A stretch of DNA of 64,000 bases, taken from contig JBEKVQ010000002.1 in the NCBI GenBank assembly GCA_049997815.1, positions 74,483-138,482 of the forward strand. The letters run 5' to 3'. The position numbers and the translations under genes are program-made. Shown piece by piece: positions 9,020 to 44,960 of this stretch. This stretch comes from Minisyncoccia bacterium (lineage in GTDB: Bacteria > Patescibacteriota > Minisyncoccia > UBA6257 > GWB1-50-10). Numbering within the stretch: the stretch's first letter is position 1; every line of letters starts with the position of its first letter. The notes below the pieces were generated by a model. That model was not told the DNA's origin. It did not search any database and saw only the letters and a program-made list of their open reading frames with translations.

Positions 9020-10164
9020 GAGTTCATAAACTGGCTATCTTTGTCTCTCATCCGATTCAGTATCAGGCCCCGCTCTTCAGGGTAATCTCAGGGGATAAGA
9101 GGATAGAATCGGTCGTTTATTTCGCCGGCCGGGGAGCGACGGAAGAAGCGTATGATTCGGAATTCGGCAGAAAGATAAAATGGGATATTCCTCTTCTCGA
9201 TGGATACAAACACGTTTTCTTGGGTTCAAAGTTTGAATTGCCGAAAATTATTCTGGCTGGAAAGGGGAAAGCGGATGCTGTTTTAGTTTTTGGTTGGAAT
9301 TCTCTCGGGACGCTCCTGGTTTGTCTGGCGGCGATCCTTTCGGGGACGCCCATTTTAATGCGTTCGGAGAGCCCGTTAAATCAGGAGCTTTTGAAGACCG
9401 ACTTTTCTCAAAATGTGAAAAGGATGTTCTTACGGACGCTTTTTAAGTTCATCTCTGCCTTTTTGTATATCGGGGAAGAGAACAGGAAATTCTACAAATA
9501 TCTTGGCGTCCCGGATGCAAAGCTGTTCTTTGCTTCATACGCCGTTGATAATGCGAGATTCATCGGAGAAGCGGAAGTTTTATCGGTGCGCAAGAATGCC
9601 TTAAGGAAAGAAGAAGGCATTCCGGCAGGAGCGAGAGTGGTCCTGTTCGTCGGGAAGCTTATACTGAAAAAACGCCCGATGGATTTGCTTCGCGCGTATG
9701 CCGACCTGTCAATTGAAGACAAAGCGCTGATATTCGTAGGTGATGGAGCTCTTCGTTTGGAGTTGGAACGCTACGTGAAGGAAAAGGATTTAGGGAATGT
9801 GTTCTTTTTCGGCTTCAAGAATCAGACGGAAATAGGCAAATATTACGCGATGTCTGATGTCTTTGTGCTGCCGTCCGGAGCGGGAGAAACCTGGGGCTTG
9901 GTTGTGAATGAAGCTATGTGCTTTTCCCTCCCAATCATGGTATCGGACGTCGTTGGTTGCGGATTCGATCTGGTGAGGAGCGGTTTGAACGGTGGCATTT
10001 TTAAATTGGGGGATATCGGATCCATGACGTTATTATTGGAAGATATTTTGAAATCGGGACGGGCACATTCGATGGGCAAGAGCTCGCTCGATATTGTAAA
10101 AAAATACAGTTTCGTTCAGGATTTAGAGGGCTTGCTGTCGGCATTGGAATGGGTACAAAAATAA
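9016..10164 (+). CDS. Glycosyltransferase family 4
   Basis: ATGA overlap with upstream; GETWGLVVNEAMCFSLPIMVSDVVGCGFDLV. Confidence 0.85.
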   Translation: MRVHKLAIFVSHPIQYQAPLFRVISGDKRIESVVYFAGRGATEEAYDSEFGRKIKWDIPLLDGYKHVFLGSKFELPKIILAGKGKADAVLVFGWNSLGTLLVCLAAILSGTPILMRSESPLNQELLKTDFSQNVKRMFLRTLFKFISAFLYIGEENRKFYKYLGVPDAKLFFASYAVDNARFIGEAEVLSVRKNALRKEEGIPAGARVVLFVGKLILKKRPMDLLRAYADLSIEDKALIFVGDGALRLELERYVKEKDLGNVFFFGFKNQTEIGKYYAMSDVFVLPSGAGETWGLVVNEAMCFSLPIMVSDVVGCGFDLVRSGLNGGIFKLGDIGSMTLLLEDILKSGRAHSMGKSSLDIVKKYSFVQDLEGLLSALEWVQK

Positions 10165-11198
10165 AAATCTTAATAGTTGGCGAGGTTTCTCTCTGCGCAC
10201 CGACGCGCTTGGTTTATGACGATCTCCTCAAATTGGGGAATGAGCCGGAATTAATAGACACCCTCAAATTTTTCAAGGTTTCGCTTTTGAACAGGGTGGT
10301 GAATAAATTCCTAAAAACCCCGCATTACTTCGGTCCCGGCGTCAAAAAGCTCAACAGGTTCATCATTGAGCGCGCGTCCGCCGGAAAGTTCGAATACGTC
10401 CTCTTTTTCAAGCCATCGCTGATATATCCGAGGACGATTCTGGAGTTGAAAAAGAGCGCGAAGATATTGGGAATATACATGGACCACGTCGATTTCCTGA
10501 AGAGCGGAAGCGACCATTTTTATAAAACCTTACCCATGTTCGACCTGTATATGTCCACGATTCATTCCAACACCGAAGCGATGTACAAGTACGGCGCGAA
10601 ACGCTCTACATTTTTCCCGATGACCGCCGATTCAACCTTTCTTCATCCCGTGGAAGTTTCCCCCGAAAACATGAAGCGATTGGGAGCAGACGTGATTTTT
10701 ATCGGAAATTATGCCAATGAGAAGCGCGCCGATTATTTGGAAAGACTGTGTAAGGATGGATATGACGTTCGGATATACGGCTATGGCTGGCAAAATCTGC
10801 CGGCGGATTCCTGCTTACGGCGGAAGAAGAGAATATTCAAACCGGTTCTTTGTACAGACATGGCGGAAGCCTTTAGTGCAGCCAAGATAGGCATGGCTTT
10901 CATGCGCGAATGCAATGACGAAAAGATCGGCTGCCGCACCTATGAAATACCGCTTTGCGGCACGTTCATGCTCCACGAGAGAAATAAAGAGGTTGAGGAG
11001 TTTTTGATTCCGGATAAGGAAGCCGCCTTCTTCGATTCGTATGAAGAGATGAAAAGCAAGATAGATTTCTATCTGAAAAATCCGGAAATTAGGAAGAAGG
11101 TGGCGAAGGCCGGCTATGAGCGAATCTTGAACTGCGGAGAACTCATTTACGACCAGATGAGGAAGATGCCGGCGATGCTCAAGAAAGAGCTGGGTTAG
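10149..11198 (+). CDS. CgeB-like / DUF3880-type glycosyltransferase
   Basis: CRTYEIPLCGTFMLHERNKEVEEFLIPDKEAAFFDSYEEMKSKIDFYLKNPEIRKKVAKAGYERIL matches the CgeB-family C-terminal domain. Confidence 0.75.
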   Translation: MGTKIKILIVGEVSLCAPTRLVYDDLLKLGNEPELIDTLKFFKVSLLNRVVNKFLKTPHYFGPGVKKLNRFIIERASAGKFEYVLFFKPSLIYPRTILELKKSAKILGIYMDHVDFLKSGSDHFYKTLPMFDLYMSTIHSNTEAMYKYGAKRSTFFPMTADSTFLHPVEVSPENMKRLGADVIFIGNYANEKRADYLERLCKDGYDVRIYGYGWQNLPADSCLRRKKRIFKPVLCTDMAEAFSAAKIGMAFMRECNDEKIGCRTYEIPLCGTFMLHERNKEVEEFLIPDKEAAFFDSYEEMKSKIDFYLKNPEIRKKVAKAGYERILNCGELIYDQMRKMPAMLKKELG

Positions 11199-11234: not shown

Positions 11235-12326
11235 ATGATTAAGAAGAAGTCCAAGAAGAGACCCCAGAAAAGAAAAACCGTACTGATAACCGGCGGGGCC
11301 GGTTTCATCGGCAGTGCCGTAGTCAGGTATCTGCATAATAAATACCCGAAATATCACTTCATTATTCTGGATGCCCTGACCTATGCCGGAGACATACGTA
11401 ACATTCCGGAATCCATCCGGCAAAGCAAGAATTTTGAGTTCCATTACGGGGATATACGCAATCAAAAACTAGTGGAACATCTGGTTTCCCGATCGGATGT
11501 GGTGCTCCATTTTGCCGCGGAAACGCACGTAGCGCGGTCAATTTTTGATGATATTAATTTCTTCGAAACGGATGTAATCGGGACGCAAAGATTGGCGAGT
11601 GCGGTTCTGAGAAACAAGAAAACGATAGATAGGTTCATCCATATTTCCACAAGCGAGGTCTACGGCACCGCCCTTTCGAGGAAGATGAGTGAGAAGCACC
11701 CCTTAAATCCCCAGAGTCCGTACGCTGCCGCCAAGGCCGGAGCCGACCGGCTGGTCTATTCCTACATGGCCACCTATAAGCTTCCCGCGGTTATCGTGCG
11801 TCCCTTCAATATGTTCGGTCCCAACCAGCATTTGGAGAAACTCATCCCTCGTTTTATCACGAGTTGCATCTTGAATGAGCCCCTCACCATCCATGGTAGC
11901 GGAACCAGCCGAAGAGATTTCACTTATGTGGATGATCTGGCCCGGGCGATAGATATGATCCTGCACGCCCCCGCGAAAAAGGTTGTCGGGCAGGTTTTTA
12001 ATGTTGGTTCGGGCCGTGATGTTTCGGTCGGAGAAATAGCTAATCTGATCATAAAGATGATGAATCGCCGCGATAAGAAGGATTCCTCGGTGCGCTACGG
12101 TTCTTCGCCGCTCAATATCGGTGACCGGCCGGGGCAGGTTTTCCGTCATACCGCGGATACGACGAAGATTTTGAAAGCTCTTTCCTGGAAACCGCGCATG
12201 GCCTTCAAAGAAGGTTTAGCTTTGACCATAGACTGGTATATAAAGAACGAGGGATGGTGGAGAGATAAACTGTGGATGCGTCACGTTCCGGTGGAGACCG
12301 AGAAGGGCAAGACGGAGATGCATTAG
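11235..12326 (+). CDS. NDP-hexose 4,6-dehydratase (RmlB/RfbB-like extended SDR)
   Basis: VLITGGAGFIGSAVVRYL, DALTYAGD, HFAAETHVARSI, YAAAKAGADRLV (YxxxK), KLIPRFI. Confidence 0.85.
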   Translation: MIKKKSKKRPQKRKTVLITGGAGFIGSAVVRYLHNKYPKYHFIILDALTYAGDIRNIPESIRQSKNFEFHYGDIRNQKLVEHLVSRSDVVLHFAAETHVARSIFDDINFFETDVIGTQRLASAVLRNKKTIDRFIHISTSEVYGTALSRKMSEKHPLNPQSPYAAAKAGADRLVYSYMATYKLPAVIVRPFNMFGPNQHLEKLIPRFITSCILNEPLTIHGSGTSRRDFTYVDDLARAIDMILHAPAKKVVGQVFNVGSGRDVSVGEIANLIIKMMNRRDKKDSSVRYGSSPLNIGDRPGQVFRHTADTTKILKALSWKPRMAFKEGLALTIDWYIKNEGWWRDKLWMRHVPVETEKGKTEMH

Positions 12327-13582
12327 GTTTTACCGTGAATCCCCCCATAAAAAATAAAAAATTTACTCCGGGTAAGGACTGGATTTGGTACGCTCCGAAT
12401 ACCAAGGATGCTTTCGGCGAAAACGAAACGCGGGCCGTCACTTTTTCCCTAAGGAGCGGCTGGCTGACCTTGGGTGATACCGCCAAAAAATTCGAGGATA
12501 AGGTAGCGGGAATCTTCGGTAAAAAATACGGGCTCTTTGTGAACTCCGGCTCTTCCGCCAATCTTTTGGCCCTCTGCGCTTTAAAATTTCCCAAGGGTTC
12601 CGAAATAATCACGCCGGCGTGCACCTTTAATACGACCGCGGCTCCGATAATCCAAACGGGTCTCGTTCCCGTATTCGTGGACGTGGACCTCGGAACCTAT
12701 CAGATGGATCCGGAAGAGATGAAAAGGGCCCTATCAAAGAGGACTGTGGCGGTCATGGCGCCGCACCTGATTGGTAATTTCATGGACCTGCCGGCCATCC
12801 GAAATTTTTGCGGGAAACACGGACTGATTTTTATTGAAGACAGTTGCGATACGATCGGCGGCAAATTTAACGGTAAGCCGTCGGGCAAGTGGAGCGATCT
12901 CACGACGACGAGTTTTTATGCTTCCCATCTGATAACGACCGGCGGGGCAGGCGGCATGCTCATGACCAACGATAAAAAACTGAGGGAAAGAGCCAGATTA
13001 TTCCGCGATTGGGGGAGAGGAATCTCGCGACATGATGAGGATATCCGTTCCCGGCTTGCCACTTTCAGGATTGACGGAAAGCCATACGACAGCGCCTTCG
13101 TTTTCGTGGAACTGGGATATAACTTCAAGCCCACTGAAATGCAGGCGGCGTTCGGATTGGAGCAGTTGAAGAGATTGGGTGGGTTTATGAATTTGCGCAG
13201 GAAAAATTTCAAGCGGCTTCGCGCGTTCTTCGAGGGTTTCGGGCAATATTTTATCCTGCCGCAAGAGCTGCCCCGAACGAAGGTCAATTGGCTGGCCTTT
13301 CCGCTCACGATAAAGAAAGGTGCCCCGTTTACGAGAAACGATTTGGTCAGATATCTGGAGCGCCATAAAATCCAGACGAGGCCGCTTTTTTCCGGGAACA
13401 TAACGAGGCAGCCGGCATATGCCAAAACAAAATACAGGAAGATCGGTAGTCTGAAGAACTCTCAATTCATAATGGGGCATTCCTTTCTTATCGGCCTGCA
13501 TCACGGGCTGACCGAAGAGATGCTGGAGTACGTCATGGAAGTGTTTTCCGGGTTTTTGGGGAGGATAGATTCGGGCTCTTAG
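12272..13582 (+). CDS. DegT/DnrJ/EryC1-fold PLP/PMP enzyme, RfbH/DdhC-like (NDP-4-keto-6-deoxyhexose 3-dehydrase-like)
   Basis: GWLTLGDTAKKFEDKVAGIFGKKYGLFVNSGSSANLLAL, GGAGGML; length about that of RfbH; start uncertain (ATG 12272 overlaps upstream gene by 55 nt; GTG at 12335 is an alternative). Confidence 0.75.
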   Translation: MDASRSGGDREGQDGDALGFTVNPPIKNKKFTPGKDWIWYAPNTKDAFGENETRAVTFSLRSGWLTLGDTAKKFEDKVAGIFGKKYGLFVNSGSSANLLALCALKFPKGSEIITPACTFNTTAAPIIQTGLVPVFVDVDLGTYQMDPEEMKRALSKRTVAVMAPHLIGNFMDLPAIRNFCGKHGLIFIEDSCDTIGGKFNGKPSGKWSDLTTTSFYASHLITTGGAGGMLMTNDKKLRERARLFRDWGRGISRHDEDIRSRLATFRIDGKPYDSAFVFVELGYNFKPTEMQAAFGLEQLKRLGGFMNLRRKNFKRLRAFFEGFGQYFILPQELPRTKVNWLAFPLTIKKGAPFTRNDLVRYLERHKIQTRPLFSGNITRQPAYAKTKYRKIGSLKNSQFIMGHSFLIGLHHGLTEEMLEYVMEVFSGFLGRIDSGS

Positions 13583-13584
13583 AT

Positions 13585-13610
13585 CTCCGCCTCCTAGGGC
13601 GGTTTTTTAT
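13585..13610 (+). terminator. Rho-independent terminator
   Basis: ccgcc-tccta-gggcgg + tttttt. Confidence 0.6.
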
Positions 13611-13715
13611 GCAGGCACTATATAATTGACAGATTACTGGTTATGTGCTATCCTTCAATCGTTGGTTACTTGACAGCTAAATAGATTTCTCACGAACTTA
13701 CGCCGGAGGTGCCCA

Positions 13716-14273
13716 GTGATAAACATAACTAGTGCGGATTGGACCGGATATGAGAAGAGTATCGCGATTGCGGTCCTGCAAAAGATCGCATACTGCCAGG
13801 ATAAGGGAAAGGGTCTACCGGTCGAGGTCTTCGAGCCGTTCTGTAGGAGTAAGAAGAACATCTCGACCGAGCTTGTGATTTTCAATGAGAAGGGAGAAAT
13901 TTACCTCGTGAAGCGACCGAGCTTGAATGAGAATCCGAGCGAACCATATCCGGAACAGTATCACAGTCCCGGCGCGACACACGACAAGAACGAGACACTG
14001 GAAAATACCCTTGAACGTCTTCGCCGAAGAGAGGGAGTTAATTTTTCCAGCGTTGAGGGGGTCTACCCTCCTCGTGATTCGCGGGACAAAGAACGGGGGA
14101 GATATCTACTCTGTATTTTCATCGCCGATGCAATCGGTGCTCAGACGAATGCCAAGGGACGTTTCTTCAAACAGGAAGATATCCCGTGGAGTGAGCTTGT
14201 AAGCGTCCATCGGGAGATTATCGTTCCCGCCGCGCTTGAGGCATTCAAGAAACGGAACACAAAGCCCCAATGA
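13716..14273 (+). CDS. Nudix-fold hydrolase with degenerate Nudix box, GDP-mannose mannosyl hydrolase (Gmm/WcaH)-like
   Basis: GTG start preceded by GGAGG SD; PGATHDKNETLENTLERLRRREGV resembles the Gmm box GGRVQKDETLEAAFERLTMAELGL (recalled from memory); paralogue of next gene. Confidence 0.6.
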   Translation: MINITSADWTGYEKSIAIAVLQKIAYCQDKGKGLPVEVFEPFCRSKKNISTELVIFNEKGEIYLVKRPSLNENPSEPYPEQYHSPGATHDKNETLENTLERLRRREGVNFSSVEGVYPPRDSRDKERGRYLLCIFIADAIGAQTNAKGRFFKQEDIPWSELVSVHREIIVPAALEAFKKRNTKPQ

Positions 14274-14299
14274 TGAGGGGCGACGCGTATAAAAAGAAG

Positions 14300-14335
14300 G
14301 GAGCAACCGCAATTGTTGCTCCTTTTTCATTTTTA
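14300..14335 (+). terminator. Rho-independent terminator
   Basis: ggagcaac-cgcaatt-gttgctcc + tttttcattttt. Confidence 0.8.
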
Positions 14336-14438
14336 TCCCAGCCGATAATGGATTGACAGTTCATCAGGAATATTTTATTCTCTAAACAGCCCTGAAACAG
14401 TAGAATATCAGCCACATTTAAGAGAAGGAGTGTGATGA

Positions 14439-14984
14439 ATGAAAACCCTGGGAAACTTCCTAGCCAGCTTGGTCGTCAAGATCTTAGTTTGGTTTCTCAA
14501 GTACCTTCCGTCTCTGGAGGAGAGGTTAACCGTTGCTTTATTGAGGAACTTACATTGGCCCCTCAAACAGTCCATATTCTCGGCCATCGTCAATAAAACC
14601 GTCTCCGTTCCGATTGAGCTCGCCGTGTTCGACGAACAGGGCCGGGTTTTGATGTTCTACCGCCGGGACGATGAGTACGACGGTTACCACATACCGGGAA
14701 CCGTTCTCCGGGACAATGAGGACGTTCCGGCGGCAATCCGACGGCTTCTGAAGAGTGAAGTGGTGGGGGGTAGGGTTACTCAGATTACTTCGCTCGGCTG
14801 GATAGAAATTCCAAAGGGAGATAATCCGACCCGTCACGAGATATCGCTTCTCCACTCGTGCGTGCTCGAAGGCCCGTATAACGGAAAAAGCGGGGAGTTC
14901 TTTTTCCCCGACAAACTTCCGTTCACTACTCTCGATCATCACCACACCTTGATCAAAGAAATAATGAAAAGGTCCGGAAGATAG
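14439..14984 (+). CDS. Nudix-fold hydrolase paralogue (Gmm-like, degenerate Nudix box)
   Basis: AAGGAG SD 8 nt upstream; IPGTVLRDNEDVPAAIRRLLKSEVVG; overall collinear similarity to 13716-14273. Confidence 0.6.
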   Translation: MKTLGNFLASLVVKILVWFLKYLPSLEERLTVALLRNLHWPLKQSIFSAIVNKTVSVPIELAVFDEQGRVLMFYRRDDEYDGYHIPGTVLRDNEDVPAAIRRLLKSEVVGGRVTQITSLGWIEIPKGDNPTRHEISLLHSCVLEGPYNGKSGEFFFPDKLPFTTLDHHHTLIKEIMKRSGR

Positions 14985-15007
14985 AGTTCCCATCCCGATT
15001 TCACAAA

Positions 15008-15045
15008 ACGCCGCGTGAGTTTCATTCACCGGCGTTTTTCCATTT
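15008..15045 (+). terminator. Rho-independent terminator
   Basis: aacgccg-(16 nt loop)-cggcgtt + tttccatttt. Confidence 0.55.
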
Positions 15046-15050
15046 TCACT

Positions 15051-15079
15051 TTGATTTCGGACCGCGAATTCCATATAAT
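15051..15079 (+). promoter_or_regulatory. Sigma70-like promoter TTGATT-17-TATAAT
   Basis: ttgatt 15051-56, tataat 15074-79, ATG at 15095. Confidence 0.5.
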
Positions 15080-15094
15080 ACATCTGTTCACTCA

Positions 15095-16036
15095 ATGAAA
15101 AAAATTCTCATCACCGGCGGCACGGGTTTCGTGGGCTCGAACTTCGTCTATAAATTCCTTAAATTGGGAGACGAGGTTCATCTTCTCGTGAGGCCGGAAG
15201 CGAAATTCTGGAGAATCGAGCCGGTAAAGAGCAGGGTTAAGCTGCACAACGTCGATATCACGAATGATAGCGATGTCGACAAATTCATTTCGGAGCTTAG
15301 GCCAGAGATCATTCTTCACTTCGCCACTTACGGCGCGTATCAATGGAAAGAGCAGGACGTAAAAACGACGATAGACACCAATCTCCTCGGCACCGTCAAT
15401 CTGGTGAACGCCTGTAGTAAAATCGGTTTCGAGTGTTTCATAAACACCGGGAGCACTTCCGAATACGGCGAAAAGAAAGCGCCTATGAAGGAGACCGACC
15501 TGCTCGAGCCGAATAATCTATACGGCACGACTAAGGCCGCCGCAACGCTATATTGCCAGTTTCTAGCAAAAAAATTGGACCTCCCGTTAGCCACGATGCG
15601 CCTCTTCTCGCCCTACGGATATTTCGAAGGCGAGGGTCGCTTGATGCCCGCGCTCGTGCGGGCCGCGCTCTACGGAGAAAAATTCGAAGCCCCATCCCCG
15701 TCGATCGTGAGGGACTTTATCTTCATTGAAGACGTGGTAAGCGCGTATTTGAAAGCTATAGGGAAAATCGGTAGCATTAAGGGGCAGATTTTAAACATCG
15801 CATCCGGCGAAGAACATTCCATCGGGGAAGCTGTGGAAATCGTGGAAAGAATTTCCGGCGCAAAGATCGAGGCGAATTACGGAAAAATTCCGCCGAGGCA
15901 GACGGAACCGAAAAGATGGGTGGCCGACATAACGAAAGCGAAGACGTTGCTTGATTGGAAACCCGAGAATTCTTTATTTGACGGCCTGTCAAAATTCATC
16001 GCGTGGGCAAAAAATAACGAAGTATTCATAAAATAA
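15095..16036 (+). CDS. NAD-dependent epimerase/dehydratase (extended SDR)
   Basis: MKKILITGGTGFVGSNFV, YGTTKAAATLYCQ (YxxxK). Confidence 0.85.
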   Translation: MKKILITGGTGFVGSNFVYKFLKLGDEVHLLVRPEAKFWRIEPVKSRVKLHNVDITNDSDVDKFISELRPEIILHFATYGAYQWKEQDVKTTIDTNLLGTVNLVNACSKIGFECFINTGSTSEYGEKKAPMKETDLLEPNNLYGTTKAAATLYCQFLAKKLDLPLATMRLFSPYGYFEGEGRLMPALVRAALYGEKFEAPSPSIVRDFIFIEDVVSAYLKAIGKIGSIKGQILNIASGEEHSIGEAVEIVERISGAKIEANYGKIPPRQTEPKRWVADITKAKTLLDWKPENSLFDGLSKFIAWAKNNEVFIK

Positions 16037-16857
16037 TGCAAAAGAAACAGATTCTGAATTTGGAAGAGAAAGCCAGGGAATTGCGGAGCCAGATCGTGAG
16101 AATGATCTACAGGGCCAGGGCTTCCCACATCGCCTCCGCCTACTCGGTTCTGGATATCGTGCTTTATTTGTACGGTTTTATTTTGCGCGTAGACCCCAAA
16201 AATCCCAAGAGTCCGGAGAGAGACCGGTTCATTCTGAGTAAGGGATGGGCGGCATCCGCTCTTTACGTTGTCCTGGCCGACAAGGGATTCTTTAAAATGA
16301 AGGAACTGGATTCTTATTGCACGGACGGAAGCAAGTTCATAGGTATTGCCACCATGAGCGGCGTCCCCGGCATAGAGACCACAACCGGCTCGATGGGTCA
16401 TGGTTTACCAGTGGGAGCCGGCATGGCGGTCGCCGGAAAGAAACTCAAGAGCAAGCGGAGGGTGTTCGCGGTCATAAGCGACGGCGAATTGGACGAGGGT
16501 TCTACTTGGGAAGCCATTCTTTTCGCCGGCCACAATCATTTGGATAATCTCGTCATCGTCGTGGACTATAATGGGCTGCAGTCGTTTGGCCGAACCAAAG
16601 ATATTCTGAATCTCGATCCCTTACCGGATAAGTTCAAAGCGTTCGGCTGGGCGGTAACGGAAACGAAGGGGCATGATTTTTCTTTCCTTGCAAGAGCGTT
16701 CGCCAAGCTCCCGCTCCAAAAAGGCAAGCCAACCGCGATAATCGCCCACACCGTAAAGGGCAAGGGCGTGTCTTTCATGGAGAACAAGAATGAATGGCAC
16801 TATAAATACCCCAACGAAGCGGATTTGGCGGCCGCTCTTAAGGAACTCTCAAACTAA
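16036..16857 (+). CDS. Transketolase N-terminal (ThDP-binding) subunit of a split transketolase
   Basis: HGLPVGAGMAVAGKKLKSKRRVFAVISDGELDEGSTWEA (GDG ThDP motif), DPKNPKSPERDRFILSKG. Confidence 0.85.
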   Translation: MQKKQILNLEEKARELRSQIVRMIYRARASHIASAYSVLDIVLYLYGFILRVDPKNPKSPERDRFILSKGWAASALYVVLADKGFFKMKELDSYCTDGSKFIGIATMSGVPGIETTTGSMGHGLPVGAGMAVAGKKLKSKRRVFAVISDGELDEGSTWEAILFAGHNHLDNLVIVVDYNGLQSFGRTKDILNLDPLPDKFKAFGWAVTETKGHDFSFLARAFAKLPLQKGKPTAIIAHTVKGKGVSFMENKNEWHYKYPNEADLAAALKELSN

Positions 16858-16858
16858 C

Positions 16859-17794
16859 ATGCGCGGAACTTTCGTAAAAACATTGATGGGGATGATGGAA
16901 AAAGACGAAAAGATAATCGTCGTTACCGCCGATATGGGGTACGGTACTTTCGAGGCATTGAGGGATAAATTCCCGGACCGGTTCATAAATACGGGCGTCT
17001 CGGAAGCCAATGCGGCCGGCGTTTCGGCTGGCTTGGCCCTCTCCGGCTATACCGTCTTCTTTTACGCGCAGGCGGCCTTCGTGACACTCCGATGTTTTGA
17101 GCAGGTCCGCCTGGATATTGCCTCCAACGATTTGGACGTAAAGCTGGTGGGCACTTCGGCGGGATTTACGCTTTGCCAATACGGCGTGAGCCACTTTGCG
17201 CTTGAGGATGTGGCGGCAATGCGTTCCCTGCCCAATATGACGGTAATGTGCCCGGGAGACATTTACGAAGCGGAGTGGGCGACGAAGGCATCGTGCTCAT
17301 TCAAAGGGCCGGCCTACATAAGAATAGGGCGCAGCAACAGCGGACCGGACGTGTTCATCCATCCGAAGAAACCCAGTTTAAAGATCGGGGAGCCGATCAT
17401 TATAAGGAAAGGGGACAAGGCGACCGTAGTTTCAACAGGGAGCATGCTCTTCTTAGCCAGAGAGGTTGAAAAGGAGCTCCATGCCAAAAAGATAAACGCA
17501 TCCCTGGTTTCTATGCCGACCGTAAAGCCGCTCAACGGCCCGAAGACCCTAAACTTATTCAAGAAGAATAAAGCCGTGTATGTGATGGAAGAACACAGTG
17601 TAATCGGTGGTTTGGGTTCGGCCATTTCCGAACTGGTCACAGATAGAGGACTGCCGTACAAGGTGGTCAGGCTGGGGACCGGAGACAAGTTTTTGCATGT
17701 CGCCGGCTCGCGAGATTATTTGCTCTCGCTCCACGGGCTTACGGCAAAGAAAATCGCCGCCCGTATAGCCCGGGACATAAAGGATAAAAAATAA
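16859..17794 (+). CDS. Transketolase C-terminal (pyrimidine-binding + C-terminal domain) subunit
   Basis: ATG immediately after upstream stop; ITADMGYGTFEALRDKFPDRFINTGVSEANAAGVSAGLALSG. Confidence 0.8.
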   Translation: MRGTFVKTLMGMMEKDEKIIVVTADMGYGTFEALRDKFPDRFINTGVSEANAAGVSAGLALSGYTVFFYAQAAFVTLRCFEQVRLDIASNDLDVKLVGTSAGFTLCQYGVSHFALEDVAAMRSLPNMTVMCPGDIYEAEWATKASCSFKGPAYIRIGRSNSGPDVFIHPKKPSLKIGEPIIIRKGDKATVVSTGSMLFLAREVEKELHAKKINASLVSMPTVKPLNGPKTLNLFKKNKAVYVMEEHSVIGGLGSAISELVTDRGLPYKVVRLGTGDKFLHVAGSRDYLLSLHGLTAKKIAARIARDIKDKK

Positions 17795-17795
17795 C

Positions 17796-18938
17796 ATGAG
17801 TGAAAATCCCTTGGTGAGTATTTGTATAACCTTTTTCGGCGCAGAAAAGTACATCCGCAGGGTTCTTTATAGTTGCCTGAATCAAACATACAGGAACATA
17901 GAAGTAGTGATAGTTGACGATGTAAGCATTGACGGGAGCGAGGAGATAATAAAGGAATATGCCAAACGGGACCCCCGGATAAAATACTTTAGGAATACCG
18001 AAAGAGAGCGTTTCATGCTGGGCCTTGCAAAGGCGTTTAAGCTTGCGAAAGGGGATTTTGTTATGTTCATCGGAGCAGACGATTGGTTGTCGAGGGATTA
18101 CATAGAGAACGGGGTGCGAAGTTTCAAGGAGCACCCCGACGCTGCCGGCATAGTCCCCAGAATGATAGGTTTGTTCGAGGTGGACAGCAATAAATTCAAA
18201 TTCCGCAACGAAATATTCGGAAATTTTTCCCCTCCCAAAATCTATTCTGCCGAATGGTTCGCAAAGCGCGCGTATAAAGGGATAGATGCGAACGTAGGCG
18301 CACTGGCATTAACGAGAAAAGAAGATGCGGTGAGCGCGGCGGATTATTTTATTGAGAATTACTACAATAATCCCTCCGATTCCATCCCCGAAGAATTAAA
18401 AAAATCATTTCTCAGGGGGTTCAGCAGCGACGCGATGTCGTTTTTGGAGATTCTAACCAGATATAAAAGTTTCGTTTTCGACAGTTCGTTGAATCATTTT
18501 CACACAACAGGAGGACAAACCCAGCATTTTGAGGGTATTGAGGGAAGGGAATCGCTATCCGAGATTTTCAAACAGGCTCATTATTATACGATCATATTCA
18601 AATATATTTATGAACCGAGATGGACGAGGTTTTACCGGAAAATGAAGATCTTTCTGGCGTCGGAAGCGCTATCGTCGGTATTTATTTATTTTTTGAGATC
18701 CGGCCTTCGCCCGTATTTCTTGAATATCAGGGGGGGTAGGGAAGCGATTCACGAGGTTTTCAAAGATTTTTCGATCTTTGAAACCGTGACGGTGATTTTA
18801 TATTCGATTTCGTTGGTTATATATCGCTGTTTTAAATTTATCGGGAAGCTGTTTACGGAAGAGAGTGTGTATAAAAAAGAATCCCGCATATTCACGCGGG
18901 AGAACTTTCTGAATTCGGAGGGTCGTTTCGCGGAATGA
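17796..18938 (+). CDS. Glycosyltransferase family 2 (N-terminal GT-A domain) with C-terminal domain of unknown function
   Basis: VSICITFFGAEKYIRRVLYSCLNQTYRNIEVVIVDDVSIDGS. Confidence 0.8.
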   Translation: MSENPLVSICITFFGAEKYIRRVLYSCLNQTYRNIEVVIVDDVSIDGSEEIIKEYAKRDPRIKYFRNTERERFMLGLAKAFKLAKGDFVMFIGADDWLSRDYIENGVRSFKEHPDAAGIVPRMIGLFEVDSNKFKFRNEIFGNFSPPKIYSAEWFAKRAYKGIDANVGALALTRKEDAVSAADYFIENYYNNPSDSIPEELKKSFLRGFSSDAMSFLEILTRYKSFVFDSSLNHFHTTGGQTQHFEGIEGRESLSEIFKQAHYYTIIFKYIYEPRWTRFYRKMKIFLASEALSSVFIYFLRSGLRPYFLNIRGGREAIHEVFKDFSIFETVTVILYSISLVIYRCFKFIGKLFTEESVYKKESRIFTRENFLNSEGRFAE

Positions 18939-18953
18939 CCCTGGCCACTTGGA

Positions 18954-18983
18954 TTGACAGAGATAGACCTTAAATGGTATATT
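18954..18983 (+). promoter_or_regulatory. Promoter TTGACA-18-TGgTATATT for FkbM methyltransferase / RmlC-like operon
   Basis: ttgaca 18954-59; tgg tatatt 18975-83. Confidence 0.55.
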
Positions 18984-19034
18984 TGCGACAGTCATTTAAC
19001 CACGAAGTCAGAAAAACAATAGAGGAAACAAAAA

Positions 19035-20081
19035 ATGGCAACCATTACACACATCATAAATCCAAACCCTCGGCTTACGAAACATCTGGTTTCGAAGAAC
19101 GAATTCGCGGAAGAGCTGTTGACCGTCGTCGACGGGGGTGCAAAGGGTGGATTTGAAGAGTGTTGGAACTGGTATTCCGGACAGATACGGCTCCTCGGTT
19201 TTGAACCGAATGTCGCCGAGTATAAGAAACTAAAAAAGGAGATTGTGAAGGCCGGGCAGCGATATTTCCCGACGGCTCTCTCCGATAAAAAAGGGCGCCG
19301 TGCTCTCAGGATCTATGAACTTGCGGCGGCGACCTCTTTTTTGAGGCCGAATTTCCGATTTCTTAAGCGACTGCCTAGCTCGGAGAGCTTTACACTCAAA
19401 AAGAGAATCTCCGTACCCACCGATAATCTCGATTCGATCGTGCGCTCGATAGGACTCAATGCCGTGGATTTCATAAAGCTCGATACGCAGGGAACGGAAC
19501 TCGAGATCCTGCGGGGAGCGAAAAGAATACTGCGTTCCGCACTCGGAGTGACCGTAGAGTGTGCGTTTAATCCGTTTTATGAAAAAGAAACGACGTTTAC
19601 GGATATCGACCGATTTCTGAAACCGTTGGGTTTCTCGCTCTTCAATTTGCCTACGTTCCGTTATGCGCGGACCGAGCTCTCGGTATATCAGGGGACGAGA
19701 ATTCATCAGAATACCAATCCCCATGGCCAGGTTTGCTGGTGCGAGGCGCTCTACTTCCGAGATGCGGCGGATGAAATTCTTCATGGGAAAGGCACTAAAT
19801 GGAAACGTCCCCGGATTTTGAAACTTGCGAGCCTAATGGAGCTTTTCAGCTTCCAGGATTGTGCGATGGAATTACTTCGCGTCGCTTCTGAGGCAGGACG
19901 ACTCAAGGGCGATGATTTGAAGCAAATGTTCGAATTTTTGGTTCCCGATGTCGATGGGGAAGAATACCCGTACGCCGCGTACGTTGAATATATGAGAGCA
20001 ACGCATGAACTCGATTTCCAGAAACGGACGGAGTTCGCGAAACTAAAACGCTCATCGAAAGGAAGGAGAAATCAATCATGA
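19035..20081 (+). CDS. FkbM-family methyltransferase
   Basis: VVDGGAKGGFEE, IKLDTQGTELEILRGAK (FkbM motifs); GAGGA SD. Confidence 0.75.
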   Translation: MATITHIINPNPRLTKHLVSKNEFAEELLTVVDGGAKGGFEECWNWYSGQIRLLGFEPNVAEYKKLKKEIVKAGQRYFPTALSDKKGRRALRIYELAAATSFLRPNFRFLKRLPSSESFTLKKRISVPTDNLDSIVRSIGLNAVDFIKLDTQGTELEILRGAKRILRSALGVTVECAFNPFYEKETTFTDIDRFLKPLGFSLFNLPTFRYARTELSVYQGTRIHQNTNPHGQVCWCEALYFRDAADEILHGKGTKWKRPRILKLASLMELFSFQDCAMELLRVASEAGRLKGDDLKQMFEFLVPDVDGEEYPYAAYVEYMRATHELDFQKRTEFAKLKRSSKGRRNQS

Positions 20082-20584
20082 GATTCGAGAAAACCAAATT
20101 GGACGGAGTCCTGCTTATCACGCCGGACATCAATGATACCGATTTCCGCGGCCCCTACGTCGAGCCCTACAATAAGAAAGAGTTCGCCGAAAATGGGATA
20201 AATATAGATTTTGTCGTGGACGACTTTTCGATGTCATTCCGGGGAGTATTGCGCGGCCTTCATGGGGATCAGGAAACGTATAAGCTTGTCTCCTGCCGCA
20301 TCGGGCAGCTCTATCTCGTGGTTCTGAATTATGACGAAAATTCGCCGCAGTTCGGTCAGTGGCAGAGTTTCTCCTTAAGCGACACGAATCATCAGCAGGT
20401 GCTTATCCCCCCGAAGTTCGCTAACGGCCACCTGGCGCTTTCCGAACGGGTAATGTTCTCCTACAAACAGTCGGAGTATTATCATCCGGAACGGCAGTTC
20501 TCGGTCAGATTCGATGACTCACGGTTCAACATCTGGTGGCCCATTAAGAACCCCATTCGTTCGCTAAGGGATGAGGGAAAGTAG
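20078..20584 (+). CDS. RmlC-like cupin sugar-nucleotide 3,5-epimerase (dTDP-4-dehydrorhamnose 3,5-epimerase family)
   Basis: ATGA overlap; GVLRGLHGD, QQVLIPPKFANGH, strong SD GGAAGGAG. Confidence 0.8.
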   Translation: MRFEKTKLDGVLLITPDINDTDFRGPYVEPYNKKEFAENGINIDFVVDDFSMSFRGVLRGLHGDQETYKLVSCRIGQLYLVVLNYDENSPQFGQWQSFSLSDTNHQQVLIPPKFANGHLALSERVMFSYKQSEYYHPERQFSVRFDDSRFNIWWPIKNPIRSLRDEGK

Positions 20585-20607
20585 TACGTTCGATCATCAT
20601 CGTGAAA

Positions 20608-20645
20608 GCCCGGAGCTATTGTGTCCGGGCTTTTTCATTTTTATC
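20608..20645 (+). terminator. Rho-independent terminator
   Basis: gcccgga-gctattgtg-tccgggc + tttttcattttt. Confidence 0.8.
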
Positions 20646-20665
20646 GGTGGGTAGCAAGCCGTTCC

Positions 20666-20695
20666 TTGACAGTCCATGTGGATTTTTGTTACTGT
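20666..20695 (+). promoter_or_regulatory. Promoter TTGACA-18-TGtTACTGT
   Basis: ttgaca 20666-71; tg t tactgt 20687-95; strong SD GAAGGAGGAAGG before ATG 20759. Confidence 0.45.
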
Positions 20696-20758
20696 TTCCT
20701 CAGTTTCATTACCAATAAGACACACTAAAACAGAAAGAAAGAAGGAGGAAGGACAGCT

Positions 20759-22567
20759 ATGGAAAACCTAACTGCTGGACGGCCGACGATTGCCGAACTG
20801 GTCGAAAAATCGAAACACATCCGCAACCTTATTCTTAATATGTGCGAGAAGGCGGGAACGGGTCACGTGAATTCGTCCTATTCCTGCATCGAGCTTATGG
20901 TTGCGCTCTATCACGGGGGAATCCTCGAATTCGATCCGAAGAACCCGAAGTGGAACGATCGCGACCGGTTCATTCTGAGTAAAGGACAAGCCAGTCCGGG
21001 ACTGTATGTGGTCCTTGCTGATTTGGGATTCTTCCCGTTGGAGGAACTCGACCATTTTAATCGTGCCGAAGGAATTTTCGGCGTGCATCTCCAAAACACC
21101 GTTCCGGGAGTCGAGATAACCTCCGGTTCATTGGGACACGGTTTCGGGGTAGCGCAGGGAATCGCCCTTGCCGAGAAAATGGACGGGAAACACCACCTTG
21201 TCGTGACACTCCTCGGAGACGGAGAGTGCTACGAAGGGTCCGTGTGGGAAACGGCGATGCTTGCGAGTCATCATCGGCTCAATAATCTGGTCGCCATCGT
21301 CGACCGGAACTACATGTGCGCCATTGATTTTACGGAAGACGTTAATCAGCTTGAACCGCTCGATAAGAAGTGGGAATCGTTTGGATGGAGAGTCGTCCGC
21401 ATTAACGGCCATTCCTTTGAACAGATTTTTGCGGCTTTCGACGGGATTCGTTCTCGGCGTTCGACGCAACCCCTGCTCATCATCGCGGATACCGTGAAAG
21501 GCAAAGGTGTGGGGTTCATGAGTGATTCTCCGTTCTGGCATTCGCAGGCTCCTAAGGGAAAGTTCTTTACCATTGCCCAGCAGGAGCTGAACGAGAATGT
21601 CCGGCCCCAGCGGCAGGTGGAGCATGAGATCGTCAAAAGACCCTCGATGCGGGATGCGTTCTGGAACAAGATTTACGACCTCGCGGTTCTCGACCGAAAT
21701 TTAATCCTCGTCTCGGCGGATCAAAATTCGCCGACCCTCGACGATGATTTCCGGAAGAAGATCCCCCAGCAGTTCCTGAACGTGGGGATCGCCGAGCAGA
21801 ACATGGTTCTCGTTGCTGCCGGACTTGCCATAGGGGGCAAGAAGGCGTTCGCGCATGCTATTGCTCCATTCATCACGCTTCGGTGTTATGAGCATATCAA
21901 AATGCAGCTTTCGGCGATGAAGATACCAGTGACGCTTGTGGGAGTGGGGGCTGGATTCAGTTATCCCGACTCTGGACCCACGCACCACACACTTGAAGAT
22001 CTCTCCATTATGCGGACCCTGCCCAATATGCTGGTTCATAATATCTCGGATGACGTGATGGCTGCGGCTTTCGCTCTAATCGCCTATCGCGAACAGCGTC
22101 CACGCTATATACGTCTGGACCGGGAGGCGTGCCCCAATATTCACCAGGCGGACGCCGATTTTTCGAGTGGTGTAGCACTTCTTCGGGATGGCGACGGTCC
22201 ATGCATCGTTGCTACCGGTAATATGGTTCATCGGGCGCTTGCAGTCGCCGAGAATCTCAGTCAAACGATTCCGGGGATCAGGGTTGTAGAGATATATACC
22301 TTCCCCGTGAATCTCGGCGCGTTCGCTGAAGCGATTGGTCCATCGAAACGGGTAGTGACCCTGGAAGAACACTTCCTACCTGGAGGATTGGGGAGTGCAG
22401 TCACTGAGGCGCTCGCGGATTCCGGTATTTGTGTGCCGGTCAAACGGATTGGTGTGGATCCATCGAAGGGATACTGCTACCGATACGGCGGCCGCGGAAA
22501 CATCCAGTTGCAGTATGGGTTGGACGAAGAGAGCATTATCGGCAAGGTCTCGCTGTTCTTGCAGTAG
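20759..22567 (+). CDS. Fused (N+C) transketolase-family enzyme, paralogue of the split pair at 16036-17794
   Basis: DPKNPKWNDRDRFILSKGQASPGLYVVLADLGFF nearly identical in pattern to the split N subunit; GDGECYEGSVWE ThDP motif; 602 aa. Confidence 0.85.
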   Translation: MENLTAGRPTIAELVEKSKHIRNLILNMCEKAGTGHVNSSYSCIELMVALYHGGILEFDPKNPKWNDRDRFILSKGQASPGLYVVLADLGFFPLEELDHFNRAEGIFGVHLQNTVPGVEITSGSLGHGFGVAQGIALAEKMDGKHHLVVTLLGDGECYEGSVWETAMLASHHRLNNLVAIVDRNYMCAIDFTEDVNQLEPLDKKWESFGWRVVRINGHSFEQIFAAFDGIRSRRSTQPLLIIADTVKGKGVGFMSDSPFWHSQAPKGKFFTIAQQELNENVRPQRQVEHEIVKRPSMRDAFWNKIYDLAVLDRNLILVSADQNSPTLDDDFRKKIPQQFLNVGIAEQNMVLVAAGLAIGGKKAFAHAIAPFITLRCYEHIKMQLSAMKIPVTLVGVGAGFSYPDSGPTHHTLEDLSIMRTLPNMLVHNISDDVMAAAFALIAYREQRPRYIRLDREACPNIHQADADFSSGVALLRDGDGPCIVATGNMVHRALAVAENLSQTIPGIRVVEIYTFPVNLGAFAEAIGPSKRVVTLEEHFLPGGLGSAVTEALADSGICVPVKRIGVDPSKGYCYRYGGRGNIQLQYGLDEESIIGKVSLFLQ

Positions 22568-22688: not shown

Positions 22689-22737
22689 TCTTTCAGTTTA
22701 ATTACCAATTTCACGTGCTTATGTAGGAGAATTGAGA

Positions 22738-23688
22738 ATGAAAACCGAAAGCGTTTTGACCACAGGTGATTTTGCCAGTTTAGTCGGCACAGATATCATA
22801 GATCTTAAAAAATATCTCCAAGGCCGGACATTGGACGGCAATTTTTTATACAGAGAACGCACCGGTACCGAGCGCGATGAAGCGATTCTCTTCGTACTCA
22901 AAAAGATCGGATCCGGCGAACTTCTGGTCGCGAGAGAACAGATGAATAAAGATTACTGGACGAATTATTGGGGGGATATTCTTAAGGATTTCCTCGCAAA
23001 CGGGTGTGATGTGACAAGGCTCACTCCTCAGTACATGCGCCGATATCCTTTCTTTCGGCTCTGCCGGAACTACGTCGATTCCGAAGATGCAACATTCACG
23101 ACACGGTGGTTTGATGTTCTGAAGACCTGTTTGTTCAGTCAATATTTGCGGGAGGCCGATTCGGTTTACGAATTCGGTTGCGGACCGGGGCACAATCTGG
23201 TGCTCCTCGCGAAGCTGTTTCCTGAGAAGAATCTTCTCGGATTCGACTGGGTGCAGCCGTCGGCGGATATTTTGACGGCCATGGCGAACGAACACCATTA
23301 CCGCCTCACGGGAGGAGTTTTCGATATTTACTCGCCTGACGAGAGTATCGCGTTTCCACCCTTAAGTGCCGTGATGACAATCCATGCTTTGGAGCAGATC
23401 GGACCGAACTTCGAGCCGTTCCTGGATTTCCTCCTCAGAAAGTCACCCGCGCTGTGCCTTCACATCGAGCCCATTTACGAGCTCTACGATCCGGACAACC
23501 TGATTGATTGGCTCGCCATGGAGTTTCACCGGAAACGGAAGTATCTTGATGGTTTCCTGACCCGTCTCAAGGAACTCGATGAGAGAGGTGTTATCGAACT
23601 CATAAAGGTGCAACGAGTGCCCTTCGGAAGCACATTTCACGATCCTTACTCGTACATCGTGTGGCGGCCGTTGCGAAAAAAGATCTGA
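22738..23688 (+). CDS. Putative class I SAM-dependent methyltransferase
   Basis: VYEFGCGPGHNLVLLAKLFPEKNLLGFDWV (motif I-like); TTG at 22732 is an alternative start. Confidence 0.65.
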   Translation: MKTESVLTTGDFASLVGTDIIDLKKYLQGRTLDGNFLYRERTGTERDEAILFVLKKIGSGELLVAREQMNKDYWTNYWGDILKDFLANGCDVTRLTPQYMRRYPFFRLCRNYVDSEDATFTTRWFDVLKTCLFSQYLREADSVYEFGCGPGHNLVLLAKLFPEKNLLGFDWVQPSADILTAMANEHHYRLTGGVFDIYSPDESIAFPPLSAVMTIHALEQIGPNFEPFLDFLLRKSPALCLHIEPIYELYDPDNLIDWLAMEFHRKRKYLDGFLTRLKELDERGVIELIKVQRVPFGSTFHDPYSYIVWRPLRKKI

Positions 23689-44630: not shown

Positions 44631-44740
44631 AACTCTCGGATTTCCGGGAAAGAAGCCAAACGAGCTAGTGAGCGTCAAAGTGTTTTTAAACCATTTTGCT
44701 GAATTCTTAGCCCGAAAAAGGTCGTTAAGTTTTCAGTACA

Positions 44741-44923: not shown

Positions 44924-44931
44924 CAGTAAAG

Positions 44932-44960
44932 GCCCCGCTTCTATAAGCGGGGCTTTTGGT
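44932..44960 (+). terminator. Rho-independent terminator
   Basis: gccccgctt-ctata-agcggggc + ttttgg. Confidence 0.75.

Follow-up and report, generated by a model that had tools for sequence, protein, structure and literature searches.

The branching of CDP-4-keto-3,6-dideoxyglucose by YerE, an enzyme dependent on thiamine diphosphate (ThDP), is established (PMC12247030). YerE and YerF serve the formation of yersiniose A in Yersinia pseudotuberculosis, and this system, like ErwE, MMAR_2332 and MygE, follows a common order of steps: a dehydratase, a 3-dehydrase dependent on pyridoxamine 5'-phosphate (PMP), a ThDP-dependent addition at C4 and reduction of the branch. The same order can be read in a gene cluster of a Minisyncoccia bacterium (Patescibacteriota), which is the subject of this work. 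The cluster lies at positions 11235-22567 of a 64,000-nucleotide stretch of contig JBEKVQ010000002.1 (assembly GCA_049997815.1, positions 74,483 to 138,482), referred to here as the window. It combines an RmlB-like 4,6-dehydratase, an RfbH-like 3-dehydrase, a short-chain dehydrogenase/reductase (SDR) and a split transketolase (TK)-like enzyme. The region most likely represents the sugar-nucleotide part of a surface-glycan pathway, with a C-branched 3,6-dideoxyhexose as its product.

The likeness to YerE/YerF extends to the setting, since the cassette sits in a surface-polysaccharide cluster and is coupled to a 4,6-dehydratase and a 3-dehydrase. The branching enzymes themselves differ. YerE belongs to the decarboxylase superfamily, with the TPP_enzyme_N/M/C architecture of acetolactate synthase (ALS) and pyruvate oxidase (POX), whereas the enzyme of the window has a transketolase fold and consists of two subunits. 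In addition, the Yersinia pathway uses CDP-sugars and an Fe-S dehydrase, E1, with its reductase E3; the window has a dTDP-type dehydratase and a dehydrase that lacks an Fe-S site.

Other ThDP enzymes offer closer architectural parallels. Transketolases have been proposed for keto-sugar branching only in miharamycin and amipurimycin biosynthesis, and none has been characterised (PMC12247030). Thirteen further candidates from Krug et al. (2024), as cited in PMC12247030, are all split and come from biosynthetic gene clusters of Streptomycetes. The miharamycin and amipurimycin enzymes resemble that of the window in being split TKs in a sugar-modification cluster, with an adjacent oxidoreductase and a keto sugar as presumed acceptor. 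Going by their description, the Streptomycetes enzymes stand apart in belonging to secondary-metabolite clusters with a presumed hydroxyacetyl transfer, whereas the window family occurs in surface-glycan loci together with a 3-dehydrase, and in it Trp and Ile replace the histidines that hold the donor hydroxyl. The alpha-keto acid dehydrogenase-type E1 alpha/beta enzymes of aldgarose, kibdelomycin, avilamycin and other branched-deoxysugar pathways, not to be confused with the dehydrase E1, are also two-subunit ThDP enzymes, with one subunit holding the diphosphate-binding domain and the other the pyrimidine-binding and TK_C domains. They add an acetyl group from pyruvate to a nucleoside diphosphate (NDP)-keto sugar, the chemistry predicted here for the split TK. 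They are actinomycete enzymes, however, and differ in cluster type; the closest structure to the window TK is a genuine split transketolase.

The preceding 3-deoxygenation is also known in two forms. In E1 and SpnQ, a [2Fe-2S] cluster held by four cysteines takes electrons from E3 or ferredoxin, while ColD does without a cluster, frees its product hydrolytically and restores PMP by means of glutamate (PMC8987622).

The split transketolase-like enzyme

The candidate branching enzyme is encoded by two adjacent genes, preceded by an SDR gene that overlaps the first of them by 1 nt:

15095-16036, + strand: extended SDR coupled to the split TK (Pfam Epimerase, E 2.8e-49; S-Y-K triad intact)
16036-16857, + strand: N subunit of the split TK, ThDP diphosphate-binding domain (PF00456, E 7.5e-41; PDB 6YAK)
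16859-17794, + strand: C subunit of the split TK, pyrimidine-binding and C-terminal domains (PF02779, PF02780; PDB 6YAJ)

The start of the C subunit is corrected here from 16790 to an ATG at 16859, 1 nt past the stop of the N subunit. The best match in the PDB is the split TK of Carboxydothermus hydrogenoformans, with 43% identity of the N subunit to ChTK-N (6YAK) and 37% of the C subunit to ChTK-C (6YAJ). The N subunit matches Transketolase_N (141 bits) and not E1_dh, and the C subunit scores equally well against the DXS and TK models. Against NF004559, the TK equivalog model with a cut-off of 488 bits, the two subunits reach only 257 and 167 bits.

For the comparison of active-site residues, the window proteins were aligned with 14 syntenic homologues, human TK and the split TK of C. 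hydrogenoformans; EcTK numbering is used for the conserved and acceptor-site histidines, Asp469, Ser385 and the two arginines. Asp149 and Asn179, which bind ThDP and Mg, are invariant, and the cofactor-activating Glu is kept (VSEAN/AEQN). His26, His261 and His473 are likewise conserved in the syntenic TKs. In these positions, the window and syntenic proteins look like active ThDP enzymes. The acceptor site, where His461 and Asp469 would otherwise bind the phosphate and the C2 hydroxyl of an aldose phosphate, is remodelled: His461 is replaced by Ser or Gly in all syntenic TKs and Asp469 by Tyr, Leu, Phe or Ser. In the split TK of the window, His461, Asp469 and Ser385 correspond to Ser, Tyr and Gly, respectively. 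The equivalents of Arg358 and Arg520 are kept in the window C subunit and are kept or replaced by Lys across the syntenic TKs; as a matter of speculation, they could bind the diphosphate of an NDP-sugar.

The donor site of TK is formed by H66, H100, G114 and H473 (PMC7661550). In the window split TK, His66 is replaced by Trp71 and His100 by Ile104. The combination of Trp at the first position and a residue other than His at the second recurs in 117 of the 120 closest N-subunit homologues, with Ile in 95 (55-100% identity). The position of His100 is Phe in DXPS (the synthase of 1-deoxy-D-xylulose 5-phosphate), and the exchange H100F/L raises pyruvate use by Geobacillus TK (PMC7661550). Similarly, the non-polar replacement H102L betters the binding of alkyl chains in TK (PMC11997939). 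By analogy with these enzymes, the split TK appears to carry a natural equivalent of the engineered pyruvate-donor pocket. Since Trp and Ile stand in place of the donor-hydroxyl histidines, transfer of a hydroxyethyl/acetyl unit is predicted, not of glycolaldehyde. The first-pass annotation of this DNA had suggested that glycolaldehyde could be donated to give a dihydroxyethyl branch; for the split TK, this is disfavoured by the loss of both residues that bind the C1 hydroxyl. DXPS, which uses pyruvate as donor, shares the non-polar residue at the His100 position, but it keeps His66 (PMC7661550), where the split TK has Trp. It is also a single chain that accepts glyceraldehyde-3-phosphate in isoprenoid synthesis, whereas the split TK stands in an NDP-sugar context.

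A 3-dehydrase without the Fe-S-loop cysteines

The two genes that would supply the keto-sugar acceptor lie upstream, in the same orientation:

11235-12326, + strand: NDP-glucose 4,6-dehydratase, RmlB-like (TIGR01181; PDB 6BI4)
12335-13582, + strand: E1/RfbH-like PMP-dependent NDP-4-keto-6-deoxyhexose 3-dehydrase (NF011936, PF01041; PDB 3BCX)

The dehydratase matches TIGR01181 at 322 bits, which is under the cut-off of 365.1 bits, but this is by far its best family; the gmd model gives 86 bits. Its top PDB matches are all dTDP-glucose 4,6-dehydratases, the best being 6BI4 (242 bits). In related loci, homologues sharing 62-83% identity stand immediately upstream of the dehydrase.

The start of the dehydrase is placed at GTG 12335 (415 aa) instead of 12272, because the lengths of its homologues and the 415-aa call of NCBI agree; the gene then begins 8 nt past the dehydratase stop. 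The protein has the DegT/DnrJ/EryC1 fold (PF01041, E 1.2e-90; PDB 3BCX, E 1.5e-87 over residues 29-430) and the SGSSANL motif, and it scores 397.5 bits against NF011936, under the trusted cut-off of 423 bits. Over its full length it is 39% identical to Yersinia E1 (PDB 3BCX), which it matches at 298 bits, compared with 194 bits for ColD.

It had been proposed earlier that this protein is a dehydrase and not an aminotransferase, a question that turns on the residue at the lysine that binds pyridoxal 5'-phosphate (PLP). Its segment SFYASH219LITT aligns with SFYPAH220HITM of E1, and the H220K mutant of E1 (3BB8) has Lys at this place. His219 thus bears out the proposal and rules out a true aminotransferase. 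His occupies the position of E1 His220 in all members of a 17-sequence alignment (17/17) and in all 84 RfbH-like relatives, counted by alignment over the RfbH-like proteins of the fetched loci. Five neighbouring DegT proteins carry Lys and are ordinary aminotransferases.

The Fe-S ligands of E1 are largely missing. Of the E1 motif C-X57-C-X1-C-X7-C, the dehydrase keeps only the equivalent of Cys193, and its three downstream cysteines are gone. The Cys-rich segment DCYCAPGCDNTCKK of E1 corresponds to GISRHDEDIRS in the dehydrase, without Cys, and the loop DCYCAPGCDNTC of E1 is a Cys-free segment in the window protein as well as in 84 of 84 relatives. These 84 proteins also share the pattern of a retained Cys193 equivalent and absent Fe-S-loop cysteines. 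The clade is overwhelmingly patescibacterial, and it includes DPANN archaea and a few metagenome-assembled genomes (MAGs) labelled Gamma- or Betaproteobacteria or Gemmatimonadetes.

Reductases were sought among the open reading frames (ORFs) of at least 150 aa over the 64-kb window and the main + strand ORFs of at least 100 aa in its first 32 kb. No E3-like reductase of the Fer2/FAD_binding_6/NAD_binding_1 type was found among these ORFs or in eight annotated related contexts. The first-pass annotation had also noted the missing E3 and had concluded that the pathway is incomplete. Its observation holds for the scanned ORFs; the conclusion, as far as it rests on E3, is probably wrong, given a dehydrase clade that lacks the cysteines through which electrons from E3 would be accepted. 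Lacking these cysteines, the clade should therefore be independent of E3, and its mechanism should resemble that of ColD despite the closer sequence relationship to E1. The window dehydrase shares with both E1 (RfbH/DdhC/AscC) and ColD the DegT fold, an SGSSANL-type motif and a catalytic His in place of the PLP lysine. It differs from E1 and matches ColD in the loss of three of the four [2Fe-2S] cysteines and in having no E3 nearby, and it differs from ColD in its pairing with an RmlB-like dehydratase instead of a GDP-mannose dehydratase.

Conservation of the cassette

The arrangement of these genes is not a matter of chance, as it recurs in many independent genomes and metagenomes. Two surveys were made, in which individual loci carry L or P numbers. 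The first was centred on the dehydrase and covered 80 loci, one per GTDB species, retrieved by dehydrase alignment. Within 10 kb, 13 of them hold a split TK, about 21 a YerE-like (ALS-type) ThDP enzyme, and one locus holds both. In the closest subclade, the order is that of the window: glycosyltransferase, 4,6-dehydratase, dehydrase, in some cases NUDIX, SDR, N subunit and C subunit. The glycosyltransferase at the head of this series lies directly before the dehydratase in the window, and a homologue is found at the same place in L004, L007, L008, L012 and the P0011 locus:

10149-11198, + strand: glycosyltransferase, Glyco_trans_1_2 (PF13524, E 5.5e-25)

The second survey was a metagenome scan centred on the TK and blind to RfbH, in which markers were sought within 8 kb in 40 Trp-type TK loci of at least 6 kb. 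A His-type DegT protein is present in 25 of these loci, a 4,6-dehydratase in 15 and a glucose-1-phosphate (G1P) cytidylyltransferase in 14, and 29 loci have at least one of the three. The modal cassette consists of a G1P cytidylyltransferase, a CDP-type 4,6-dehydratase, an SDR, the N and C subunits of the TK and an RfbH-like protein; it is a classical 3,6-dideoxyhexose operon with a TK inserted. An SDR homologue stands directly upstream of the N subunit in nearly all TK loci. In a marine subgroup with Trp and Gly in the donor pocket, the markers were missing by BLAST, and the TK sits amid NDP-sugar SDRs, GT2 and FkbM proteins and a GFO oxidoreductase. Overall, the split-TK family occurs in surface-glycan loci of the candidate phyla radiation (CPR) and DPANN, as well as in some proteobacterial MAGs.

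These surveys favour a ThDP-dependent C-branching of a 4-keto-3,6-dideoxy intermediate, the route that had been suggested for the cluster from the start: either a YerE-like enzyme or a split TK is found near the dehydrase, and this route fits the comparative genomics best.

Some related loci have further features of their own. Two split-TK pairs occur in certain cassettes, adjacent to each other in L085 and L117 and with an SDR gene between them in L123. In L085 (7224-10748), the TK pairs follow a G1P cytidylyltransferase, a 4,6-dehydratase and an SDR, in parallel to the two TK enzymes of the window. The loci L004/L005 (12083-19968; Patescibacteria MAG H43-bin076) encode a dehydrase 79% identical to that of the window. 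The genes downstream of it encode a DmpF-like acetaldehyde dehydrogenase, a DmpG-like aldolase and a 602-aa YerE-like enzyme (L004 13971-15779), followed by an ATP-grasp_2/Citrate_bind protein, a CoA-ligase, a citrate-synthase-like protein, an SDR and a NUDIX protein. This array looks like a supply line for a longer hydroxy-2-oxo-acid donor and an erwiniose- or caryophyllose-like branch, and it recalls the hydroxy-oxo-acid donors used by ErwE.

Proposed pathway and alternative explanations

The proposed pathway begins with an NDP-glucose made elsewhere in the genome, which the RmlB-like enzyme would convert to NDP-4-keto-6-deoxyglucose, the nucleotide being a deduction. The dehydrase most likely then removes the 3-hydroxyl, with hydrolysis of the ene-amine and recovery of PMP by transamination, and without E3. 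The resulting NDP-4-keto-3,6-dideoxyhexose would receive a two-carbon acyl branch from the split TK at its C4 ketone, giving a tertiary alcohol; the enzyme is read as a TK-fold analogue of YerE because of its synteny and its remodelled acceptor site. A ThDP-bound hydroxyethyl carbanion, probably derived from pyruvate or another alkyl 2-oxo acid as in DXPS and the engineered TKs, would yield a 4-C-acetyl sugar. Finally, the coupled SDR may reduce the branch carbonyl in the manner of YerF to a yersiniose-like 4-C-(1-hydroxyethyl) sugar, and an adjacent GT2 enzyme may transfer the product. A role of the TK-like enzyme in sugar branching is judged somewhat more probable than its absence, and the branch is probably acetyl/1-hydroxyethyl rather than dihydroxyethyl. 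The broader proposal, that Trp/Ile split TKs form a large natural family of ketone-accepting, 2-oxo-acid-using carboligases for C-branched, tertiary-alcohol 3,6-dideoxy sugars of the cell envelope, paired with dehydrases free of both Fe-S and E3 in CPR and DPANN, is more tentative and falls a little short of an even chance.

Several points weigh against this pathway. The folds, catalytic residues, residue substitutions and conserved synteny are established, while acceptor, donor and branching position of the TK family are all deduced from sequence and synteny, as are the nucleotide and the role of the SDR. None of the three markers is found within 8 kb in 11 of the 40 TK loci, partly on account of short contigs. 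No nucleotidyltransferase was found among the scanned ORFs of the window, and its dehydratase is of the dTDP type where many related cassettes have the CDP type. The best PDB matches of the SDR, at about 110 bits, are UDP-glucuronic acid 4-epimerase, GalE and CDP-tyvelose 2-epimerase; with this similarity to NAD-dependent epimerases, its action could precede that of the TK, or its product could be an ordinary 3,6-dideoxyhexose. The dehydrase, as an E1-like enzyme free of Fe-S, could use an unrecognised reductant instead of ColD chemistry. In addition, both His66 and His100 are retained in syntenic split TKs that are more distant. TK lineages may therefore use different donors, and because of these distant enzymes the pyruvate donor is less certain than the branching role.

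The same distant enzymes bear on the possibility that a transketolase, with a ketose phosphate or hydroxypyruvate as donor, delivers glycolaldehyde to the 4-keto-3,6-dideoxy sugar, so that a hydroxyacetyl group and then a 1,2-dihydroxyethyl branch would arise. Glycolyl transfer is conceivable for them, split TKs have been proposed for exactly this reaction in miharamycin and amipurimycin biosynthesis (PMC12247030), and a second, fused TK of the window (20759-22567) keeps His100. The fused enzyme has Gln at His66, however, and in the split TK and 117 of its 120 closest homologues both histidines that bind the C1 hydroxyl are lost, with the non-polar residue at His100 found in DXPS and in TKs engineered to favour pyruvate. 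Glycolaldehyde transfer is accordingly considered improbable for the window. An acceptor other than the C4 ketone of a 3,6-dideoxy sugar is also unlikely, if slightly easier to accept. The TKs might join carbon units to a C3-keto isomer, to a 4-keto-6-deoxyhexose that is not 3-deoxygenated, to an intermediate epimerised by RmlC, or to an aldehyde in the formation of a higher-carbon sugar. Such acceptors would suit L085, L111 and L123, where a 4,6-dehydratase and a nucleotidyltransferase are present and no His-type dehydrase lies within 8 kb, and the fused TK, which follows an RmlC-like gene and not the dehydrase; the SDR, moreover, resembles epimerases and oxidoreductases able to reposition a carbonyl. 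Set against this are the His-type dehydrase in 25 of the 40 TK loci, which were collected without bias towards it, the tight packing of dehydratase, dehydrase, SDR and TK in one array of the window, and the precedent of YerE, which acts on the C4 ketone.

The cluster could also be taken for an ordinary pathway to a plain, paratose- or abequose-like 3,6-dideoxyhexose and an RmlC-derived 6-deoxy-L-hexose, with the TKs as housekeeping or precursor-supplying bystanders. The PGAP label of the TKs is plainly 'transketolase', many archaea and thermophiles normally have split TKs for housekeeping (PMC7661550), and unrelated genes may adjoin in compact CPR genomes. However, both TKs lack His461, Asp469 and one or both donor histidines, their scores of 257, 167 and 424 bits remain below the 488-bit equivalog cut-off, and the block of SDR, N subunit and C subunit is conserved in NDP-sugar operons of dozens of unrelated contigs. 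Residues, scores and synteny rule out housekeeping TKs, in agreement with the first-pass view that these are not pentose-phosphate enzymes, and the ordinary pathway as a whole is very improbable. C4 branching by the split TK is the reading retained here.

The fused transketolase-like enzyme and the second module

A second set of genes follows the split TK and extends past 22567, the end of the region first considered:

20078-20584, + strand: RmlC-like NDP-4-keto-6-deoxyhexose 3,5- (or mono-) epimerase (PF00908, E 5.2e-44)
20759-22567, + strand: fused three-domain transketolase-like enzyme of a rare clade (NF004559, 424 bits, under the 488-bit cut-off)
22732-23688, + strand: 318-aa protein with weak, sub-threshold Pfam matches to S-adenosylmethionine (SAM) methyltransferases
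23826-25340, - strand: B12-binding radical SAM enzyme, class B, methyltransferase-like (PF02310, PF04055)
25534-26472, + strand: second extended SDR, SDR2 (PF01370, E 5.1e-30)

The RmlC-like protein scores 136.9 bits against TIGR01221 (cut-off 155.75) and 127 bits against an RmlC of the 1EP0 type, and alignment to the latter shows its catalytic His, Lys and Tyr to be conserved. The signature of the fused TK in EcTK numbering is H26, Q66, H100, H261, G461, S469 and H473. Its small clade is marked by H-Q-H-H in the N-terminal part and by Gly and Ser/Met at the positions of His461 and Asp469. Only one close relative was found (83%); other full-length homologues reach at most 43%, and below about 38% most signatures are those of canonical TKs. 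In L012 and L088, the place of the fused TK is taken by a split counterpart.

The other genes of the module recur beside TKs. Homologues of the 318-aa protein stand next to the TK in L012 (32%) and L088 (33%). The B12-radical SAM enzyme, whose best NCBIfam matches are HpnJ and BchE at about 150 bits, far under their cut-offs, is also encoded in the P0011 locus, L088 and L089, and thus co-occurs with TK modules. SDR2 homologues with 62-71% identity adjoin RmlC in L007, L009 and L088. The fullest parallel is L088, which combines SDR2 (62%), RmlC (60%), a DegT protein, a split TK (54% to the fused TK), an RfbH-like protein, an SDR, the 318-aa homologue (33%) and a B12-radical SAM enzyme (39%). 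Taken together, the module probably produces a second sugar, differently branched and/or C-methylated, from the same 4-keto intermediate. Its donor could differ from that of the split TK, as the fused enzyme retains His100.

The contigs that carry the closest relatives of the fused TK, L088 (Logan SRR22387775) and L089 (ENA ERZ27247776), look phage-like. They contain an intein with LAGLIDADG, an RMF-like protein and series of tiny ORFs. Also present on them are SDRs, a GHMP kinase, an NTP_transferase, an RmlC-like gene and genes for DegT and B12-radical SAM proteins. Viruses may carry a branched-sugar pathway; viral contigs scanned with the split TK yielded only 9 weak loci, of which the best reaches 49% identity. 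Another relative, P0350 (429 aa), consists of a cytidylyltransferase-like domain (PF01467) fused to Transketolase_N, with 53% identity to the N-terminal half of the fused TK. Such a fusion is a hint that the lineage handles nucleotide-activated substrates.

Neighbouring genes and the surface-glycan island

The genes named in the first-pass annotation (RmlB-like, RfbH-like, SDR, TKs and RmlC-like) are all present at or near the positions given there, with strong family matches. Two ORFs absent from its list lie in tandem between the dehydrase and the SDR, and two further genes separate the split TK from the second module:

13716-14273, + strand: NUDIX-fold protein 1, Gmm-like, with a degenerate Nudix box (NF011963, E 3.3e-5)
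14439-14984, + strand: NUDIX-fold protein 2, Gmm-like (Pfam NUDIX, E 1e-6)
17796-18938, + strand: GT2 glycosyltransferase, directly downstream of the split TK (PF00535, E 6.3e-32)
19035-20081, + strand: FkbM-family methyltransferase, overlapping the start of the RmlC-like gene (PF05050, E 8.3e-17; TIGR01444)

The two NUDIX proteins are only 21% identical to each other, and their boxes are degenerate, with the first Glu replaced by Asn and the RE pair by ER or RR. The best PDB match of the family profile is Gmm, a GDP-mannose mannosyl hydrolase (1RYA/2I8T, E 7e-10). Homologues of NUDIX 2 (33-57%) adjoin RfbH-like genes in L005, L008, L012, L015, L035, L054, L067 and L078. The Gmm-like proteins probably hydrolyse or police NDP-sugar pools, and a clean-up of reactive keto intermediates is possible. 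EvaA, an NDP-hexose 2,3-dehydratase, also has a Nudix fold (PMC8987622). The tandem ORFs were considered as a split enzyme of this type and rejected, as no Hexose_dehydrat Pfam match was obtained and Gmm was matched best. The GT2 gene follows the TK pair in L012 and L085 too.

A family scan of ORFs across the 64 kb identifies the window as almost wholly a surface-glycan island. It holds a Wzy_C-family protein, two Wzx-like flippases, an ABC-2 transporter, a priming sugar transferase, more than 10 glycosyltransferases, at least 8 methyltransferases and one carbamoyltransferase. No ALS/POX-type TPP_enzyme_N/M/C domains occur in the window. A nucleotidyltransferase is missing from the scanned ORFs, as had been noted before, and adjoins related cassettes elsewhere.

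The genome of a CPR bacterium is presumably small, and for such a genome the island is very large, at more than 55 kb (4160-63228). Its unusual fusions include SDR and GFO (28068-30011, - strand), a zinc-dependent alcohol dehydrogenase and GFO (34510-36660), and GT2 and GT4 in a protein of 1093 aa (48655-51936, - strand). Additionally, it encodes a glucuronyl C5-epimerase-like protein (36581-37621), an AsnB-like amidotransferase (38832-40757, - strand) and the carbamoyltransferase (59889-61688). The glycan genes are interrupted at 43914-47142 by a DsbA-like thioredoxin-fold protein, a thioredoxin-reductase-like flavoprotein and a cupredoxin-like protein; of these, the flavoprotein belongs to the TrxB type and is no E3/AscD-type reductase. 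Upstream of the island, an ORF of 1114 aa (416-3760) has one PG_binding_1 domain as its sole recognisable feature.

Significance

The chemistry and the pathway logic described here are already known from other systems. The new elements are an enzyme lineage with a naturally remodelled active site, its taxonomic and biological setting, and an Fe-S-free E1-like partner. No earlier description of TK genes in O-antigen-type or patescibacterial sugar clusters was found in the literature outside subscription journals. If the proposal is true, TK would be the third ThDP scaffold to have been recruited independently for sugar branching, acting in primary surface glycans beyond the antibiotics of Streptomyces.

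The window and its relatives provide at least 117 natural sequences of TK-like enzymes whose active site is remodelled, in a clear pathway context, which makes the question of keto-sugar acceptors directly testable. The Trp/Ile enzymes would be the natural equivalent of engineered TKs that use pyruvate, which are sought for the synthesis of chiral tertiary alcohols. The Fe-S-free dehydrase clade, in turn, suggests that 3-deoxygenation is not generally solved by the E1/E3 pair of the textbooks. To our knowledge, the cell-surface chemistry of ultra-small episymbiotic bacteria is almost unknown, and the present locus points to elaborate, heavily modified surface glycans in these organisms.

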